From IMG/VR virus record IMGVR_UViG_3300045988_029329, positions 1 to 55,794 of that record: 55,794 nt of DNA. The stretch is one strand, 5' to 3'. Below are positions 483-55,794 of this stretch, piece by piece; position 1 is the stretch's first letter, and every line of letters starts with the position of its first letter. The DNA is from a virus. Made by a program: the position numbers and the translations under genes. The notes under the pieces are model-generated. The model saw only the letters and a list, made by a program, of their open reading frames with translations, made no database searches and was not told where the DNA came from.

Positions 483-559
483 CACAGAGTGGAGCAGTTT
501 TGTAGCTCGTCGGGTTCATAGCCCGAAGGTCGGTGGTTCAAATCCATCTTCTGTGTCCA
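483..559 (+). tRNA. tRNA-Met (anticodon CAT), CCA encoded
   Basis: Hand-folded cloverleaf: acceptor CACAGAG/TTCTGTG, D GAGC/GCTC, anticodon stem TCGGG/CCCGA with loop TTCATAG, T-arm GGTGG-TTCAAAT-CCATC, then T-CCA. The D-loop lacks GG. Confidence 0.75.
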
Positions 560-3136: not shown

Positions 3137-3505
3137 ATGAAGTTTACCCGAAACACGGTCAACGGAATCAACGATACCATCCTTGCTTCCAATGACTACA
3201 CCGCCATTCCCTTTACCGTGACCGAAACTGCTGCGGTTAAGGCTGGCTATCCCATGACGTTGGCTGGCAAGAAAGCTGTTGCTGCTGGCGAGACTGGTTC
3301 TAAGACGATCAACGCTGACGGCATCCTACTGTATGACGTTGACCCGGAAGAGAACCCCAACGCCGCCCTGCTGATTCGTGGTGTTATCGACACCAAGAAG
3401 GCAGCGGCAAGTTCCAGCTTCACCTTTGACGCTGACGCAATCAAGGCACTCAAGACTGCCGTTCCTGGCATCTTCTGCCGTGACAACATCAGCGTGAACG
3501 CTTAA
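3137..3505 (+). CDS. head decoration protein (lambda gpD-like)
   Basis: 122 aa, directly upstream of an E-type capsid gene. The pattern PMTLAG..ADGILLYDV..IRGVID resembles gpD PLMLDT..AVGILAV. Confidence 0.5.
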   Translation: MKFTRNTVNGINDTILASNDYTAIPFTVTETAAVKAGYPMTLAGKKAVAAGETGSKTINADGILLYDVDPEENPNAALLIRGVIDTKKAAASSSFTFDADAIKALKTAVPGIFCRDNISVNA

Positions 3506-3521
3506 TAGGAGGTAAAACAAC

Positions 3522-4598
3522 ATGGCACTGAATCTTAAGGAAGTCTTTGCCCCGGCTGCGATTGCCGCCTATTGGACGAATGACCCTACTAATGCGATGC
3601 CCTTTGCATCTGACGCACTGTTCCCCGCTCAGAAAAAGGCTGGTCTTGACCTGAAGTGGATTCGCGGCCACAAGGGTGTTGGCGTGTCTCTGATGCCCAG
3701 CGCATTTGACGCAAAGGCTACGTTCCGCACCCGTGAGGGCTTCAAGTTCGATGAGACCGAGATGCCGTTCTTCCGTGAGGGCTACCATCTGGGTGAGAAA
3801 GACCGTCAGGAAATCTTGCGTGTTCTCGACAGCAACGACCCCTATGCCCGTGACGTTGTGAAGCGCATTTATGATGATGTAAGCGATCTCGTCACCGGCG
3901 CACGCATCGTGCCTGAACGTATGATTTGGCAGTTGCTGGCTCCTGCAAATGGCACTCCCGGCATCACCATCAAGGCAAACGGTGTGAACTACACTTACAA
4001 TTACGACCCTGATGGAACGTGGAAAAAAAGCAATTACAAGGCACTGACAACTTCCGCAAAGTGGGACACTCCCGCTTCTGCTACGCCTATTTCTGACCTG
4101 ATTGCTGCGGCCGATGCTGTCAATGATGCAACTGGTGAAGAAGTCACTCGCGTCTTTATGAACAAGGCTACGCTCGCGAAGATGATTGCTGCTGATGAAG
4201 TAAAGAACCGATTCCTTACCATCAACAATCGAACCACTTCCGTTCTCACCGCGAATGAAGCAAAGGAAGTTGTTCGTCAGGCAACTGGCCTTGAGATTTT
4301 CACCTACAACAAGAAGTATCGTCCTGAAGGCGGTGGTGACACCGCAAAATATCTTCCTGACGGTTATGTTGTTCTGGCTCCTGATGGCAAACTCGGTACG
4401 ACTTGGTATGGCACTACCCCTGAGGAAGCCGATCTGATGTCCGGCCAGTCCGGCGCATCCGTGTCCATTGTGAACACCGGCGTTGCCATTACCACCGAGT
4501 TGACCGTGCATCCTGTCAACACTAACATCTATGCTTCTGAAATCGTCCTGCCGTCCTTTGAGCGCATGGACGCTGTGTACTGCATCAAGGCTTACTAA
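3522..4598 (+). CDS. major capsid protein (lambda gpE / Phage_cap_E type)
   Basis: 358 aa. N-terminus MALNLKEVFAPAAIAAYW...DALFPAQKKAGLDLKWIRG is typical of the E-family. The position also fits. Confidence 0.8.
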   Translation: MALNLKEVFAPAAIAAYWTNDPTNAMPFASDALFPAQKKAGLDLKWIRGHKGVGVSLMPSAFDAKATFRTREGFKFDETEMPFFREGYHLGEKDRQEILRVLDSNDPYARDVVKRIYDDVSDLVTGARIVPERMIWQLLAPANGTPGITIKANGVNYTYNYDPDGTWKKSNYKALTTSAKWDTPASATPISDLIAAADAVNDATGEEVTRVFMNKATLAKMIAADEVKNRFLTINNRTTSVLTANEAKEVVRQATGLEIFTYNKKYRPEGGGDTAKYLPDGYVVLAPDGKLGTTWYGTTPEEADLMSGQSGASVSIVNTGVAITTELTVHPVNTNIYASEIVLPSFERMDAVYCIKAY

Positions 4599-27387: not shown

Positions 27388-28482
27388 TTACTTTAAGAGG
27401 CTATCGTCAAACGTAGCGTAATCATCAAGGTCTGCATCTTTCAAAATTGAGTACATATAAGCGCCGGGGTCTTTTTCAATCCTATCAAGTCGCTCACTGA
27501 CAAGAATCTTGTATGCATTCTCAATGATGTTCACAACAGCTTCTTTTTTCTTGTTAGGCTTGATGTTCGGATACTTCTCCGGCAATCTCTTTGCCACCAG
27601 CTTTGCGGTCAAGATACACTGGCTTTTAGACATCTCCGGCGCAATAGATGCCCAATCCACATTCTCGTATGCGCCACTGCGGGGCTTTCTGGCAGGTCGT
27701 TGGCTCTTTGGAACATCTTTTAACTCTACGCTTTCGACCTCGTTAGCTTCCACGTCTATGACTGGCTCATTAGACTTGAAAGCTATATTGAACTTCACAG
27801 CAACCGCATTGCGACCTCTCATGACCTTGTCGTATTCAACGCACAGGTCTGATACTTCGTTTATTTCAGCTACCGCAATATCAATGACACGCCGCCTAAG
27901 ATGCTTGAACTCTTGATAGCTAGGTTCTCTTGCGCCAAGTTGTTCCCTTAATCTATCCAACGTAATTTCGGGCTGGCTCACGCCACGTCCGATGAACTCT
28001 CGGAGAATTGAATACAGCAAAATGCTATACTGTGATTTCATATTCGCTGTGTAGCGCAAGCGATACTTGACATATCCACGCTCTGCAATGTCGAAGAAAA
28101 CAGGTTGTAGAAGTGGGTTACAGCACAATGACACAGTAATATTCATCAAACTAGGTTCAAAATTTACAGTTGCTCTGCTGAACAGGGGATACAGGTCAAA
28201 CGAGCCTGAACCGTCACCTCTAGGAACTTCAACAGAGTTGTCGATGAAATGCTTAACCTGTGCTTTCAAATTCCTAGAGTTGATTTTTAACCCTAAAAAT
28301 TCGCAATATTCTTGTAACGTAAACTGAACCGTTGAAGTTTCGGGGTCTCTCGGATTGATACGGCTAAGATACACTTCAAGCAGCCGAAGCTCTCCTGCTG
28401 TATAGTCAGTGAACTTTGCCCAAACAAGCTGTCTGCTTTTTTCAACCAAGTTCCCGCCTTTAATATCAGACAATCTTATCAC
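27388..28482 (-). CDS. plasmid-type replication initiator (Rep_3/RepB-like)
   Basis: 364 aa. The N-terminus LVEKSRQLVWAKFTDYTAGELRLLEVYLSRI...FTLQEYCEFLGLK fits the Rep_3 pattern. Iterons lie directly upstream. Confidence 0.7.
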   Translation of the reverse strand: MIRLSDIKGGNLVEKSRQLVWAKFTDYTAGELRLLEVYLSRINPRDPETSTVQFTLQEYCEFLGLKINSRNLKAQVKHFIDNSVEVPRGDGSGSFDLYPLFSRATVNFEPSLMNITVSLCCNPLLQPVFFDIAERGYVKYRLRYTANMKSQYSILLYSILREFIGRGVSQPEITLDRLREQLGAREPSYQEFKHLRRRVIDIAVAEINEVSDLCVEYDKVMRGRNAVAVKFNIAFKSNEPVIDVEANEVESVELKDVPKSQRPARKPRSGAYENVDWASIAPEMSKSQCILTAKLVAKRLPEKYPNIKPNKKKEAVVNIIENAYKILVSERLDRIEKDPGAYMYSILKDADLDDYATFDDSLLK

Positions 28483-45234: not shown

Positions 45235-45873
45235 ATGGACAAAAAACGAGACAGCTTTACATTCCAACGATACTACTTTGAAGCCATCTCCACACTGAAA
45301 AGTAAAGAGAAATTAGAACTCTACGATGCAATCTGTGCATACGTTTTTGAAGGAAAAGACGCAACTTTGAACTCAAAAAAGGCAGAATCTTGTTTCATTT
45401 TGATTAAACATCTGCTCGATGAAGAGTTGAAAAGAAGCGATATTGCGTCAAAAGGATGGTCTACACGAAAGTCAGCTCATCCTCATGTCATAAATGAGAT
45501 GAAGGTCAGCTCATCTATGAGCTCACAGTCAGATGACAATGAGCCCATTGTATCAACTGACAGTCAGATGAATATCAAGACCTTGCCGGAGAGTGCGGTC
45601 AAAAAGAAACCTGACATCTTCTCCGACTTTGCTCATGGCGATAAAGCCCTGCTGGAATCCCTGCGAGAGTTCGCACAGATGCGTACAAGAATCAAAAAGC
45701 CTATGACAGACCGGGCAAAACAGATGCTCTGCAACAAGCTGGAAAAGTTTGATCGGCACGACTGGAAAGCCATTCTTGACCAGAGCATCTATGCCGGGTG
45801 GCAGGACATTTACGCATTAAAACAGGATGACCAGTACGAGCAAAGTACGGAGATGGAGTTTCCTAGACTATGA
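45235..45873 (+). CDS. phage replisome organizer (N-terminal Phage_rep_org-like, C-terminal DnaD-like)
   Basis: FTFQRYYFEAISTLKSKEKLELYDAICAYVFEG, and in the C-terminal part ILDQSIYAGWQDIYALK. Directly upstream of the helicase. Confidence 0.6.
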   Translation: MDKKRDSFTFQRYYFEAISTLKSKEKLELYDAICAYVFEGKDATLNSKKAESCFILIKHLLDEELKRSDIASKGWSTRKSAHPHVINEMKVSSSMSSQSDDNEPIVSTDSQMNIKTLPESAVKKKPDIFSDFAHGDKALLESLREFAQMRTRIKKPMTDRAKQMLCNKLEKFDRHDWKAILDQSIYAGWQDIYALKQDDQYEQSTEMEFPRL

Positions 45874-47075
45874 CAATGGACGTTCAAACGGTATTTATCG
45901 GTGCGCTGATGCTCTGCAAGCCGGGCGTTGTGGATGAAATCATACCAGACCTTGAACTTGACTTGTTCAGACCTGAGCTGAGAGACGCTTTTGCGGCTGT
46001 TCAGGGCTATTGGACGGCTAGGGGTAAGATAGATATAGTCGAGATAAACACGCAGCATCCGGACGTAGCGCAGACGCTCTTGGCGTGTGTACAAACCTGT
46101 GAATCAGAGTGTGTACGAATTGACAGGGAGCAGATGCAGCGTTGGGCACAGCTTATCAGAGAACAAGCTGCACTCACTCGTGTGCAAGGTCTGGCATTTC
46201 AGATGACCAGCGAGCTTACCGACTATTCTGATCTATCAGACATTTACCAGCAGATGGGCGAAGCAATGAGCCTGAAAGCTGAGGAAGAAGATGCGTGGAC
46301 ATACGAGGATGTGCTGAACGACTATGTGCTTCACATGGACGAAAAGCCTGTGTATATCAAGACAGGCCTAGAGCGTCTGGATGAAGCACTGCACATCTCA
46401 CCGGGTGATTTCATCATCATCGGCGGCAGACCGTCTGCGGGCAAGACAGCCCTGTCTCTGCAAATAGCAGCAAGCATGGCAAAACAGGACTACACCGTGT
46501 ACTATTTCAGCTTGGAAACCAGCAAACGCAAGCTGGGCGCTCGTCTGATGGCCAATCAAATATACTGCCCTCTGGACACGGTGAAAAATAAGGCGGTCAG
46601 CTTGAATGAGATTGACGGACAGGCAAAGAACATGAAGATGCCCTTATATATACGCTCCGCTGCCGGAAAGAACGTGGCGTGGATGAAGGCGCAGGCTCTC
46701 CGTAAAAAGGCTCAGGTTATCTTCGTAGACTATCTTCAACTCATCCACGAAACAGGCGCAAAGGACAGATATGCCGCCATTACAGCCATATCTATTGCCT
46801 TACACGAGCTGGCGCAGACCACAGGTATTGTCGTGGTGGCACTGGCACAGCTTAATCGAAACCCATCCAAGCCCGGAGCAACGCCTACCAACTCCGACTT
46901 GCGAGAGAGCGGACAGATTGAACAGGACGCAGATGCAATCATCCTTCTGTCCGGCGACAACCCCGACAAGTACCTGTTCCGGCTAAGCAAGAACAAGGAA
47001 GGCGAGATAGGCGACCTTCCCATCACGTTTAACAAGCAGATTCAACGGTTCCAAGAGTATACTTGGATGGATTGA
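45870..47075 (+). CDS. dnaB: DnaB-type replicative helicase
   Basis: Walker A IIIGGRPSAGKTALSLQIA, Walker B VIFVDYLQLI, and LAQLNR..DLRESGQIEQDAD. Confidence 0.85.
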   Translation: MTMDVQTVFIGALMLCKPGVVDEIIPDLELDLFRPELRDAFAAVQGYWTARGKIDIVEINTQHPDVAQTLLACVQTCESECVRIDREQMQRWAQLIREQAALTRVQGLAFQMTSELTDYSDLSDIYQQMGEAMSLKAEEEDAWTYEDVLNDYVLHMDEKPVYIKTGLERLDEALHISPGDFIIIGGRPSAGKTALSLQIAASMAKQDYTVYYFSLETSKRKLGARLMANQIYCPLDTVKNKAVSLNEIDGQAKNMKMPLYIRSAAGKNVAWMKAQALRKKAQVIFVDYLQLIHETGAKDRYAAITAISIALHELAQTTGIVVVALAQLNRNPSKPGATPTNSDLRESGQIEQDADAIILLSGDNPDKYLFRLSKNKEGEIGDLPITFNKQIQRFQEYTWMD

Positions 47076-51914: not shown

Positions 51915-52496
51915 ATGATCTACGGTTACGCTCGTGTCAGTTCCGCTGGACAGGCGATTGACGGCAACAGCCTTGAAGCCCAGTCTGAACTTTTGAAAGC
52001 CAACGGCGCACAGAAAATCTTTTCGGATGTTTACACCGGAACGAAGCTGCATCGACCTGAACTTGACAAGCTGATGGCTGAAATCCAGCCGGGAGACACG
52101 CTGATCGTGGCGAAACTTGACCGTATTGCTCGTTCTGCCAAGAATGGCCTTGAACTGATAGACCAATTCATTGATAAGGGCGTTTCGGTGAACATTCTGA
52201 ATATGGGGGTTATGAATAACTCCCCTACTGGAAAAGTCATTCGGACTGTTATGCTTGCCTTTGCAGAGTTTGAGCGTGACATGATTGTTGAGCGCACTAG
52301 AGAGGGCAAAAAGATTGCCAGCCAGCGACCTGATTACAGGGAAGGCCGCAAGCCTACCGAGTACGACCACAACCTCTTTGATGTTCTGCATGAACAGGTG
52401 GAAAAGCGTCTACTGACCGTCACCGATGCCGCAAAACAGCTTGGTGTGACACGCCAGACATGGTATCGGATTGCTGAACAGAGAAAGGCTGGATAA
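51915..52496 (+). CDS. small serine recombinase (resolvase/invertase family)
   Basis: [13 protein letters not shown] (catalytic Ser), [30 protein letters not shown], and a C-terminal HTH. 193 aa. Confidence 0.85.
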
Positions 52497-52497
52497 T

Positions 52498-52803
52498 ATG
52501 CAGGGAGAAGAACTGATTGTTAAGAATGGTAGCATCACACTGCGGTCTATGCTTGACTTTGGTGGATTCCTCGAAATCAAGCGGTTCTTGGAAGCTTGCC
52601 ATTCGGAAAACTGCACCGTGACTTTTGCAAACGAGGAAATTATCATTTTTCCGAATGAATACGATGCTGCTAAAGATGCTCTCGTCTTTATTTATGGTAC
52701 ACTGGCAGAAAGACACAGTATTATCGAAAAGTATCTCCGCTATAAGCTGATGCTAGGAGACGAACAACCAAAACCTACTTTACATAGTCATAGAAAGGAA
52801 TAA
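52498..52803 (+). CDS. hypothetical protein
   Basis: 101 aa. Confidence 0.4.
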   Translation: MQGEELIVKNGSITLRSMLDFGGFLEIKRFLEACHSENCTVTFANEEIIIFPNEYDAAKDALVFIYGTLAERHSIIEKYLRYKLMLGDEQPKPTLHSHRKE

Positions 52804-52806
52804 AGC

Positions 52807-52968
52807 ATGAAACCCGCAAAATTGTCAGATCAGAGCTTGAAGCTCATTGAAACGTTGTGTGATTACACCGACAAGCCGGATATTCTCAATGCCATCGCAG
52901 ACGCTTTGTACTACGATGCGGACGAGCTGAAACGCAGGCTCAGCCAGCTTGCAAAAGAAGTCAAATAA
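52807..52968 (+). CDS. hypothetical small protein (53 aa)
   Basis: MKPAKLSDQSLKLIETLCDYTDKPDILNAIADALYYDADELKRRLSQLAKEVK. Confidence 0.35.
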   Translation: MKPAKLSDQSLKLIETLCDYTDKPDILNAIADALYYDADELKRRLSQLAKEVK

Positions 52969-53058
52969 ACTGAGCAACCCGTTTATTAAGATGGATTTTA
53001 GTAAATAATTTTTCCGAAACAGCATTATAAAACCGAATATTTGATTTTTGTGCAGTTG

Positions 53059-53101
53059 TAGGCACTCTTTACATTTTCAGGTAGGGGGTGCCTATTTTTT
53101 T
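53059..53101 (+). terminator. terminator-like hairpin + T7 ending 1 nt before the terminase ATG
   Basis: Stem TAGGCAC/GTGCCTA (53059-65/53088-94), a 22-nt loop holding the G-rich RBS, then TTTTTTT. Confidence 0.35.
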
Positions 53102-55771
53102 ATGCAGCCAAAACAGTGCATTGCCATCATCGACAGCATCAAAGCGTATGCAAAACAGAATCCGACCGAAGCACAGGTCTATGAGGACTGGTTTCAGGCG
53201 GTCGTGAACCTGAAAGACGCTCTGCCGCAGGACAAACGGTTCGATGCCTACAAATACTCTGGTGAGCTGCGCTCCGTCTGTGCAACCATGATGGGCAAGA
53301 TGAAAACAGGCGAGGACGTGGCGAAGGTCTATGATATTATCAGCCGGACGTACCTGTTTGAAGCAAAGGACGTGTTTGACAGTTATTGCATCTACCTTGA
53401 ATGGAATCGTGCGCCGGAGAAGAAGTTCTATCAGCCCAGACGCAGAGTGCTAAAAGTGCTGGCAGACGACCTAGAGGACTTGTTCTATAAGCGGATAGAT
53501 TTCTTGGGGGTCAGTCTTCCGGCTCGCGTAGGTAAGGCTTTGAGTGATGATACACCAATTCTTACGCGAAACGGCTGGAAGAATCACGGCGATTTGCAGG
53601 TTGGTGATGAAGTTATCAGTCCAAAAGGCAAGTTTGTAAAGGTGCTGGCTGTATCTCCTAAGTGCCAGCTTGATGTGCGATGCCATTTCTCTGACGGCAC
53701 ATACATTGACTGCCACGAAAACCACGAGTGGCCGGTCTTTAACCGGCATAAGAACGGATTTGATGTAATCGAAACCAAGCGGATGATGGAAGATTATGTT
53801 GCCGACACGAAGGACGGTATAAGATTCTGCTATCAGGTTCCGTTCAAAAATTTTGTCGAAGGAGAATATAAGAAACTGCCTGTTGAGCCGTACACATTGG
53901 GTGCATGGCTTGGCGATGGTCGCAATCAGCACCCGGATATTTGCGAACCTCCTTGTGATCGAGTGATTGTTGAGCGTGTTATTAACGATGGATACCCTGT
54001 TAGCTGGCACACTGTCCATAAGGATACTGGCGTTGAGTACTACGGATTCTCTGGCTTGCGACAGGCACTCCAAAAAGGCGATATGTGCCATAGTCACCGC
54101 CGCTGCGTGAAGCACATCCCAGAAGAATACTTTACAGCCAGCATTGCACAGCGCATGGAATTGCTTGCTGGGCTGCTCGATACAGACGGTACGTTACGGG
54201 CAAAAGAGCATCGGTACGCTTTTTCTACCACAGAGCTGCAAATGAGAGATGATTTTGTCACGCTGGTTTCTACCTTTGGATGGAGATGTAGCGTGGTTGA
54301 ATATCCACCTCGTGTATCATCTAGTGGCATTAAAGGAAATCTGACGGTTTATTCCATCTCTTTTAATCCTACCTGCCCTATTCCCTGCGTTGTTCCTCGC
54401 AAGCAGTTAAAGGAGTTCTCCAAACCTCGCCGTGTGGCATTTTGCGGGTTTGAGCGCATCGAGCCGAAGCAGGGCAACTGCATTCAGGTTGAGGGCGGCG
54501 TATATTGCGCTGGCAAACGGCTGATTTCTACCCATAACAGTACGCTGTGCATCTTTTTCATCACATGGCTGATGGGCAACCGCCCGGACGTTGCATCGGT
54601 CATGAGCGGACATTCTGACAAGCTGACTAACGGCTTCTATGGCGAAGTGCTGTCCATCATCACTGACCCTGTGACCTACAACTGGGGCAAAATCTTCCCT
54701 GACGTTCAGCTTGTGGACAAGAGCGCAAAGGACGAAAGCGTTGATCTGAACCGAAAGAAGCGTTTCCCCACCCTGACTTGCCGCTCAATCGGCGGTACGC
54801 TGACCGGCGCAGTTGAAATTGGCGAGGGCGGCGTGCTGTACAGCGATGACTTGATTGAGGACTTGGAAGAAAGCCTGAACGTTGAGCGTCTGAACAACAA
54901 GTATGATGCCTACTTGAACCAGCTGAAAGACCGTAAAAAGCAGGGCGCATTGGAGCTGATGGTTGGTACACGCTGGAACGTGCTTGACCCTTTGGGGCGC
55001 ATCCAGAACCAGTACGCAGACAATCCAAAGTACAGATTCCGGGTGATTCCTGCTGTGGATGAGAATGGACACAGCAACTTCAACTATGACTACGGTGTTG
55101 GATTTGACGATGCCTATTATGCCGATATGAAAGCCAGCATTGACGATGCAACATGGTGGGCAAAGTACATGGGCAAGCCCTATGTGCGTGAAGGTCTGCT
55201 ATTCCCTGCCGATGAACTGCGATACTTTAACGGTGTTCTGCCGGATGGTGAGCCCGATCGCAAGCTCATGGTCATGGATATTGCATGGGGTGGCGGCGAC
55301 TTCACCGCCTGCCCTATTGCTTATGTGTACGGTGATGCTGTGTTCATCCAAGACCTTGTGTTCAACAATGGCGATAAGACCGTGACTAGGCCGGAAGTCG
55401 TGGGCAAAATCATCCAGCACAAAATCAATGTGGTGCGTGGCGAAGCCAACAACGGTGGTGATGAATATTGTGACGTGGTAGACAGCCAGCTTCGGCAACA
55501 GGGCTATCACTGTTCTGTCCGTAGCCAGCGCGCACCCAGCGGCCAAAGCAAGCTGTCCAGAATCATCCAGTATGCGCCGGACATCAAACGGTTCTATTTC
55601 CTTGACGAGAAGCATCAGTCGAAAGAGTACAAAGCGTTCATGGAGCAAGTGACGATGTTCACGCAGCTTGGCAAAGTTCCGCACGATGATGCACCGGACA
55701 GTCTGGCACAGCTTGCTGATGAACTTTACAACGGAATCAGTAAAATCGAGCCTGTCAAGAGGCCTTTTTGA
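53102..55771 (+). CDS. terL: terminase large subunit, intein-containing (555-aa extein + 334-aa intein)
   Basis: Split Walker A ...SLPARVGK|intein|STLCIFF. The C-terminal nuclease region is typical of TerL. The gene wraps to the portal across the circular junction. Confidence 0.85.
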   Translation: MQPKQCIAIIDSIKAYAKQNPTEAQVYEDWFQAVVNLKDALPQDKRFDAYKYSGELRSVCATMMGKMKTGEDVAKVYDIISRTYLFEAKDVFDSYCIYLEWNRAPEKKFYQPRRRVLKVLADDLEDLFYKRIDFLGVSLPARVGKALSDDTPILTRNGWKNHGDLQVGDEVISPKGKFVKVLAVSPKCQLDVRCHFSDGTYIDCHENHEWPVFNRHKNGFDVIETKRMMEDYVADTKDGIRFCYQVPFKNFVEGEYKKLPVEPYTLGAWLGDGRNQHPDICEPPCDRVIVERVINDGYPVSWHTVHKDTGVEYYGFSGLRQALQKGDMCHSHRRCVKHIPEEYFTASIAQRMELLAGLLDTDGTLRAKEHRYAFSTTELQMRDDFVTLVSTFGWRCSVVEYPPRVSSSGIKGNLTVYSISFNPTCPIPCVVPRKQLKEFSKPRRVAFCGFERIEPKQGNCIQVEGGVYCAGKRLISTHNSTLCIFFITWLMGNRPDVASVMSGHSDKLTNGFYGEVLSIITDPVTYNWGKIFPDVQLVDKSAKDESVDLNRKKRFPTLTCRSIGGTLTGAVEIGEGGVLYSDDLIEDLEESLNVERLNNKYDAYLNQLKDRKKQGALELMVGTRWNVLDPLGRIQNQYADNPKYRFRVIPAVDENGHSNFNYDYGVGFDDAYYADMKASIDDATWWAKYMGKPYVREGLLFPADELRYFNGVLPDGEPDRKLMVMDIAWGGGDFTACPIAYVYGDAVFIQDLVFNNGDKTVTRPEVVGKIIQHKINVVRGEANNGGDEYCDVVDSQLRQQGYHCSVRSQRAPSGQSKLSRIIQYAPDIKRFYFLDEKHQSKEYKAFMEQVTMFTQLGKVPHDDAPDSLAQLADELYNGISKIEPVKRPF
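53537..54538 (+). mobile_element. intein with LAGLIDADG homing-endonuclease domain (Ala1, ...THN / +1 Ser)
   Basis: Blocks ALSDDTPIL..GDLQVGDEV, DGTYIDCHENHEW, LGAWLGDG, LAGLLDTDG, NCIQVEGG and LISTHN|S. Confidence 0.8.
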
Positions 55772-55794
55772 TTAAAAACACAATATATTGTGTT
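55718..55794. repeat. 77-bp terminal direct repeat identical to 1..77
   Basis: Exact match to the window start. Confidence 0.95.

Follow-up and report, generated by a model that had tools for sequence, protein, structure and literature searches.

Class 3 inteins are defined by a non-nucleophilic residue at position 1 that co-varies with a Trp at B:12, a Cys at F:4 and a Thr at G:5 (the WCT triplet), the +1 residue being Ser or Thr, and they occur in DnaB, RecG, SNF2 and phage terminase large subunits (TerL), mostly in the P-loop of the ATPase; class 2 inteins of the KlbA type have Ala1, Cys+1 and Asp at F:4 and lack the triplet (PMC2807308). Experiments with Msm DnaBi1, an intein in the DnaB helicase of Mycobacterium smegmatis, demonstrated that its Cys118 is needed and that it follows the class 3 splicing route (PMC6195587). 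Among the terminases, the mycobacteriophage TerL1-a insertion separates the invariant Lys from the Thr/Ser directly behind it, a position that Kelley et al. 2016 (PMC5050341) term the "classic" P-loop site, and the intein of BAKA gp6 both splices in a reporter and cleaves the intein-less TerL allele (PMC5050341). Moreover, a 2025 survey of actinobacteriophages reported 287 class 3 inteins, mainly in TerL and Cas4, and placed the TerL intein of APunk in the class 3 phylogeny, among inteins with canonical LAGLIDADG endonucleases. Here we analysed a viral DNA of 55,794 nucleotides (IMG/VR record IMGVR_UViG_3300045988_029329, positions 1 to 55,794; this whole stretch is hereafter the window), and we conclude, with a probability of roughly 0.88, that the ATP-binding loop of its TerL is interrupted between the Walker A Lys and Ser by a mobile class 3 intein with a LAGLIDADG homing endonuclease.

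The TerL precursor gene covers positions 53102 to 55771 on the plus strand and encodes 889 amino acids followed by a stop codon. It is contained in the only long open reading frame at this position (53048 to 55771, plus strand), which begins with a TTG at 53048; because homologues begin with MQPKQ we consider the ATG at 53102 to be the real start. The extein parts match the terminase large subunit family phrog_38 of PHROG (E 3.7e-56), and Pfam and NCBIfam give weak matches to a T7-type terminase nuclease domain, with PF22530 and TIGR01630 matching the C-terminal part. In public records the gene is labelled "predicted phage terminase large subunit-like protein" or "Terminase" only. Specifically, the precursor consists of an N-extein of 145 residues (53102 to 53536) that ends with LPARVGK, the first half of Walker A, an intein of 334 residues (53537 to 54538) that runs from Ala1 to Thr332-His333-Asn334, and a C-extein of 410 residues (54539 to 55768) that starts with STLCIFF and holds the second half of Walker A together with the rest of the ATPase and an RNase-H-like nuclease domain. 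The codons at the junctions are GCT (53537-53539) for Ala1, ACC CAT AAC (54530-54538) for Thr-His-Asn and AGT (54539-54541) for Ser+1.

The boundaries are set by alleles of the same gene that are free of the intein. Conceptual removal of 53537 to 54538 gives a protein of 555 residues with the junction …FLGVSLPARVGK/STLCIFFITW… (a slash marks a junction or an insertion point throughout), the normal size for this TerL, as had been foreseen in the initial annotation: a search with the spliced sequence returned 4771 relatives, and among the best 120 of these clusters 117 are exactly 555 residues long (96-99% identity) and two have 891 residues, with an insert of 336 residues at the same point. The intein-free clusters that were retrieved (P0001 and P0020) read …DFLGVSLPARVGKSTLCIFFITW…, the loop stretch being …LPARVGKSTLCIFF… (ARVGKSTLC). 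The N-extein is identical in protein sequence to the intein-free allele (P0001; locus L007) and the C-extein is 99% identical to the intein-free TerL. At the DNA level L007 reads …CGTAGGTAAG/AGTACGCTGTGC… (in a longer form …GGGGTCAGTCTTCCGGCTCGCGTAGGTAAGAGTACGCTGTGCATTTTCTTC…) and in the window these bases flank 1002 additional nt, an exact in-frame insertion of 1002 bp that constitutes the sole difference between the two at the junction. Since no bases are shared across the junction, the insertion boundary is unambiguous. The initial annotation had placed an intein at exactly these positions in the Walker A motif, with Ala as residue 1 and a C-terminal HN followed by Ser, and had proposed that the P-loop of intein-free homologues be compared with the reconstituted junction; both the protein and the DNA alleles confirm the placement, the codons give the same terminal residues, and the P-loops match. 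It had also described the restored P-loop as G-x4-GKS. Walker A is indeed restored, but the literal pattern does not apply, as the loop reads L-P-A-R-V-G-K-S-T, a deviant Walker A of the terminase type that lacks the first Gly and in which the nearest upstream Gly is positioned seven residues before GK. For comparison, the loops of other phages read PPQTGKS, SQVGKS and SRQLGKT.

The insert carries the splicing blocks of an intein, all on the plus strand. Block A (ALSDDTPILTRNGW; 53537 to 53578), which begins with the non-nucleophilic Ala1, aligns to ALALDTPLPTPSGW of PDB entry 6BS8 (Msm DnaBi1). Block B (GTYIDCHENHEWPV; 53696 to 53737) aligns to …DAQHQWP of Msm DnaBi1 (H65, W67) and includes the HEW motif (53723-53731), with His63 at B:10 (53723-53725) and Trp65 at B:12 (53729-53731), and His60 is at B:7. 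Block F (QGNCIQVEGGVYCAG; 54470 to 54514) contains NCIQV, in which Cys315 at F:4 (54479-54481) is the predicted initiating nucleophile, and aligns to RCVEVDN…LYLAG of Msm DnaBi1, for which Cys118 has been proven to be the nucleophile. Block G (RLISTHN/S; 54518 to 54541) aligns to MVPTHN of 6BS8 and provides Thr332 at G:5, the penultimate His333, the terminal Asn334 and, as the first residue of the C-extein, a nucleophilic Ser+1. Hint blocks A and B had already been noted initially.

The class 3 assignment is supported by this signature together with homology. With phmmer, A1, H63, W65, C315, T332-H333-N334 and Ser+1 of the window intein align to A1, H65, W67, C118, T137-H138-N139 and Ser+1 of Msm DnaBi1. 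We also compared the intein with 27 homologues (28-80% identity; 28 sequences including the window), which reside in several types of TerL, in DnaB/AAA_25 helicases and in dCTP deaminases. Throughout the 28 sequences the His at B:10, the Trp at B:12, the Cys at F:4 and the terminal Thr-His-Asn are invariant, and the +1 residue is Ser or Thr in all homologues; residue 1, in the 26 homologues whose sequence extends to the N-terminal junction, is Ala, Leu, Gln or Glu and is in each case preceded by G-K. Ala1 of the window is secure as residue 1 because the intein-free alleles fix the boundary. The Trp, Cys and Thr that had been suggested initially as the class 3 triplet are therefore located at B:12, F:4 and G:5, both by alignment to a crystallised class 3 intein, Msm DnaBi1, and by their invariance among the homologues. 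Full-length relatives of the window intein (P0133, P0137, P0213 and P0178-P0240; 28-48% identity) were also seen after G-K in the DnaB/AAA_25 helicases and the dCTP deaminases (…LEGK/A…THN/S). As judged from these sequences, the distribution fits movement between unrelated genes via similar G-K/S or G-K/T sites.

The LAGLIDADG homing endonuclease domain, which comprises approximately residues 100-290 (53834 to 54406, plus strand), was delineated from its match to PI-SceI, its modelled fold and three invariant residues. Motif 1, YTLGAWLGDG (53891-53920; LGAWLGDG corresponds to residues 121-128), contains Asp127, and motif 2, LLAGLLDTDG (54161-54190; LAGLLDTDG corresponds to residues 210-218), contains Asp217; both LAGLIDADG motifs had been recognised at the outset. 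The two catalytic Asp and the block D Lys192 (54110-54112) are invariant across the 28 sequences. A phmmer search of PDB chains matched residues 1-68 to the mini-inteins 6BS8, 6RIX and 6RIY (E 2.4e-8 to 1.8e-7), the best match being Msm DnaBi1 (6BS8, E 2.4e-8), and residues 191-272 to the endonuclease region of PI-SceI (E 2e-6). An AlphaFold2 model based on 28 aligned sequences had a mean pLDDT of 93.3 and a pTM of 0.91. In Foldseek the full-length model matched PI-SceI (E 6.5e-18, TM 0.74) and also the TliVMA and PhoVMA inteins and PI-PfuI; the Hint part matched 6BS8 (35% identity, rmsd 2.2 Å; target TM 0.82 for chain 6bs8_B) and in addition gp41-1 and the Hedgehog HINT domain; and the inserted domain matched the endonuclease domain of PI-SceI, I-DmoI and I-Tsp061I. 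The endonuclease region of the model consists of two alpha-beta-beta-alpha-beta-beta repeats (H118-127/E/H139-150/E/E/H174-179 and H203-217/E/E/H234-245/E/E, with H for helix and E for strand), i.e. the pseudo-dimeric LAGLIDADG fold. Together, the phmmer hits, the model and its structural matches establish that the insert has a Hint fold.

Several described inteins resemble that of the window. Msm DnaBi1, which is crystallised and mutationally proven as class 3, likewise sits after the G-K of a P-loop; it differs in that its host is a DnaB helicase and not a terminase, in being a mini-intein of 139 residues that has lost the endonuclease, and in having Asp at B:7 where the window has His. P0213, a DnaB intein that closely resembles DnaBi1 in sequence but bears an endonuclease, shares 34% identity with the window intein along the entire length. 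The class 3 prototype, the DnaB intein of mycobacteriophage Bethlehem (Tori et al., PMC2807308), compared here by its published description only, is similar in size and in the spacing of its catalytic residues (341 residues with W67/C320/T339/N341 vs 334 residues with W65/C315/T332/N334 in the window), has an endonuclease domain, an ATPase host and Thr+1 (Ser or Thr being typical of the class), and differs by its Pro1 and its DnaB-like helicase host. In the region 30000-52250 of AY500153 we obtained no intein match; the DnaB-like gene in that record corresponds to 273 residues.

The mycobacteriophage TerL1-a and TerL1-b inteins (such as BAKA gp6 and Minerva gp9) share with the window the Walker A site of TerL and a LAGLIDADG endonuclease (PMC5050341), and the TerL1-b intein of BAKA gp6 is 31% identical to the window intein over the full length. 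In the Minerva intein residue 1 is likewise non-nucleophilic, block F includes R-C-I-Q-V, and the end reads PTHN/S. Both differ from the window intein in being inserted one residue further on (GKG/), in belonging to another TerL family, in having Actinobacteria as hosts, and in their low identity (≈31%). The closest deposited phage records are the TerL intein of Bacteroides phage B124-14 and its relatives in Porphyromonas and Gordonia (APunk) phages, with 36-39% identity over the whole intein. These use the same site (PPQTGK/E…PTHN/S and SQVGK/L…PTHN/S) and have the same block F, N-C-I-Q-V-E-G-G, but their TerL exteins are unrelated in sequence to those of the window and residue 1 is Glu or Leu, not Ala. 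Finally, over the full length no structure matched better than PI-SceI (the yeast VMA1 intein), the structural archetype of inteins that combine Hint and LAGLIDADG domains; it is a eukaryotic class 1 intein (Cys1, no WCT) with an extra DNA-recognition region and ≈15% identity.

From what is known of the family we infer both the splicing chemistry and the endonuclease activity of the window intein. TerL would be translated as the 889-residue precursor, which presumably is inactive because its ATP-binding loop is split by 334 residues. Aided by His63 and Trp65, the thiol of Cys315 (F:4) would attack the peptide bond between Lys(-1) and Ala1, giving a branched thioester on block F. Transfer of the N-extein to the hydroxyl of Ser+1 would be followed by cyclisation of Asn334, assisted by His333 and releasing the intein, and an O-to-N acyl shift would then restore …LPARVGK-STLC… in the 555-residue TerL. 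The freed intein is predicted to act as a site-specific DNA endonuclease that would cut the intein-free TerL gene of co-infecting relatives near …CGTAGGTAAG^AGTACGCTGTGC…, and the intein would be copied into the cut allele during repair (homing).

Some of our observations weigh against the reading of the insert as a mobile class 3 intein. The Pfam and NCBIfam profiles for Hint domains and inteins (Hint, Intein_splicing, PT-HINT) gave no match to the insert at E≤1, an outcome that the initial annotation had named as speaking against an intein, and the Pfam endonuclease profiles scored below their cut-offs (LAGLIDADG_3, 21.3 bits vs 22.5; Hom_end, 13.4 vs 21.1). We give the missing Hint match less weight because the phmmer matches to solved inteins are consistent with both the structure model and the intein-free alleles; it is a sensitivity limit of the profiles. 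With respect to the homologues, P0154 carries PF14890 and many carry PF14528 and PF05204. Moreover, B:7 is occupied by His in the window rather than by Thr, Asp (as in DnaBi1) or Ser (as in the Bethlehem DnaB intein), and the details of local activation may thus differ; this position is variable and dispensable in class 3 inteins (PMC2807308, PMC6195587). We also looked for co-conversion and target-site immunity: within 60 nt of the junction the synonymous differences among three intein-plus and three intein-minus loci are unlinked to the presence of the intein, so the junction bears no direct trace of recent homing or co-conversion.

Other readings of the same data concern the splicing route and the functional state of the element. 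Ala1 is also the first residue of the KlbA inteins, and with a class 2 route Ser+1 would attack the N-terminal bond directly, bypassing the block F cysteine. The class 2 signature was considered and rejected: Cys+1, Asp at F:4 and absence of the triplet characterise the described class 2 inteins (PMC2807308), whereas the window has Ser+1, an invariant Cys at F:4 and the invariant Trp and Thr of the WCT triplet, and the closest relative with a solved structure is an intein proven to be of class 3. Consequently, we regard the direct route as very improbable. That the intein is decayed or dead for splicing, leaving a non-functional TerL or cleavage products only, might be suspected of a genome that is a metagenomic assembly. 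This appears highly improbable, given that the catalytic residues are all intact, that dN/dS across the intein is 0.11-0.14 (three variants; 0.01-0.03 for the exteins) and that this allele was recovered repeatedly, from many independent contigs and samples: the TerL sequence of the window is present on 4 contigs, close variants occur on 43-46, and the corresponding 90%-identity cluster has 1735 members. Furthermore, TerL is essential for packaging, and it is the sole terminase ATPase seen in the genome. Taken together, dN/dS and the recurrence across contigs support that the function of the class 3 intein has been retained.

The endonuclease is a separate matter, since splicing could be intact in an intein whose LAGLIDADG domain no longer cuts and that is inherited only vertically or spreads by ordinary recombination. 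Such a loss would be in keeping with the unlinked flanking polymorphisms and the sub-threshold LAGLIDADG_3 score mentioned above, and with the finding that variants diverge most in the endonuclease region (74% amino acid identity, dS saturated). On the other hand, D127, D217 and K192 are invariant over the 28 sequences, the region is under purifying selection where this is measurable (dN/dS 0.07 for L010 vs L011, two intein-bearing loci from related genomes), intein-plus and intein-minus alleles coexist within one phage lineage, and cleavage of the intein-less allele is documented for the related BAKA TerL intein. We therefore consider an inactive endonuclease unlikely, and an intein that both splices and homes remains the reading that we favour.

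The intein is cysteine-rich: besides Cys315 it has C43 and C49 (53663-53683) and, in block F, C324 (54506-54508), of which C324 recurs in some homologues only. On this basis we raise, as a rather improbable idea, that splicing may be conditional, with Cys315 being reversibly blocked by metal or by oxidation (a disulfide with C49 or C324), as reported for DnaBi1. If so, this gut phage would package its DNA only under reducing, anaerobic conditions and the intein, instead of being purely selfish, would serve as a post-translational switch. The cysteine pattern is a weak lead for redox-sensitive splicing. As a counterpart of the redox partner Cys48 of DnaBi1, C49 is ambiguous and we make no such claim: phmmer aligns the two only via a gap of three residues, and MAFFT puts Val in this column for the DnaB-type and dCTP-deaminase inteins.

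The inteins at this TerL site are mosaic. The window and L010 (intein at 3436-4443) are near-identical over residues 1-76 but only 74% identical in the endonuclease domain, while L010 and L011 (intein likewise at 3436-4443) are 97-100% identical in the endonuclease and the C-terminal Hint part and 75% identical in the N-terminal Hint part. A fourth variant (P0121) is found in a different N-extein background (…QPPRTGK/). Judged from these alignments, the mosaic pattern suggests recombination between competing inteins.

Regarding the genome as a whole, nt 1-77 of the window are identical to nt 55718-55794, which indicates a circularly closed assembly, that is a complete genome of ≈55.7 kb cut just after TerL. 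The GenBank DNA related to the window originates from human faecal viromes. A scan of GTDB genomes for a host gave two distant loci only, with 62-67% identity (one in a Bacillota metagenome-assembled genome and one on a short contig binned as Bacteroidales). Among the genes of the window are those for an SPP1-type portal, an E-type capsid protein, a C5 methylase, a Rep3-type plasmid replication initiator (27388-28482, minus strand), an intein-free DnaB helicase (45870-47075) and a small serine resolvase (51915-52496, plus strand), and a single tRNA gene, tRNA-Met with a CAT anticodon (483-559, plus strand), lies between the TerL and portal genes. No integrase was found among the ten window open reading frames that were scanned. 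With the Rep3 initiator and the small serine resolvase the phage might persist as a plasmid-like episome. A search of the window for further inteins found none. On the minus strand an open reading frame of 214 residues (53471 to 54115) overlaps the intein; we take it to be probably spurious, given that the plus frame is the one with homology and under purifying selection. In the related intein-bearing genome L011 a gene for an RtcB RNA ligase (404 residues; L011 positions 1474-2688) is located between the resolvase and TerL, and the corresponding part of the window (≈52500-53000) has small open reading frames without family matches only. The region directly upstream of TerL is thus variable.

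In the initial annotation the element was called mechanistically unusual, with the implication that it is rare. Rarity is not what we found: inteins of this kind are already listed in PMC2807308, and a tblastn search with the intein gave homologues in 677 GenBank phage records, in 411 of which at least 80% of the intein is covered. These include Bacteroides phage B124-14 (39% identity) as well as Porphyromonas, Gordonia, Mycobacterium, Salmonella and Klebsiella phages and T4-like E. coli phages, and all five of the phage records inspected have the same site and the same signature. Phage TerL P-loop inteins of class 3 have been described since 2009, and the element in the window is an unannotated ordinary example with nothing new in kind. 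Pipelines that rely on the Pfam Hint models will miss the TerL intein at 53537 to 54538, and the true mature TerL has 555 residues. Class 3 inteins are of some interest as tools for protein engineering. Finally, this widely sampled lineage of uncultured human-gut phages, in which a single site is either free of the intein or occupied by one of at least four mosaic variants, is a possible natural data set for the dynamics of intein homing and loss.

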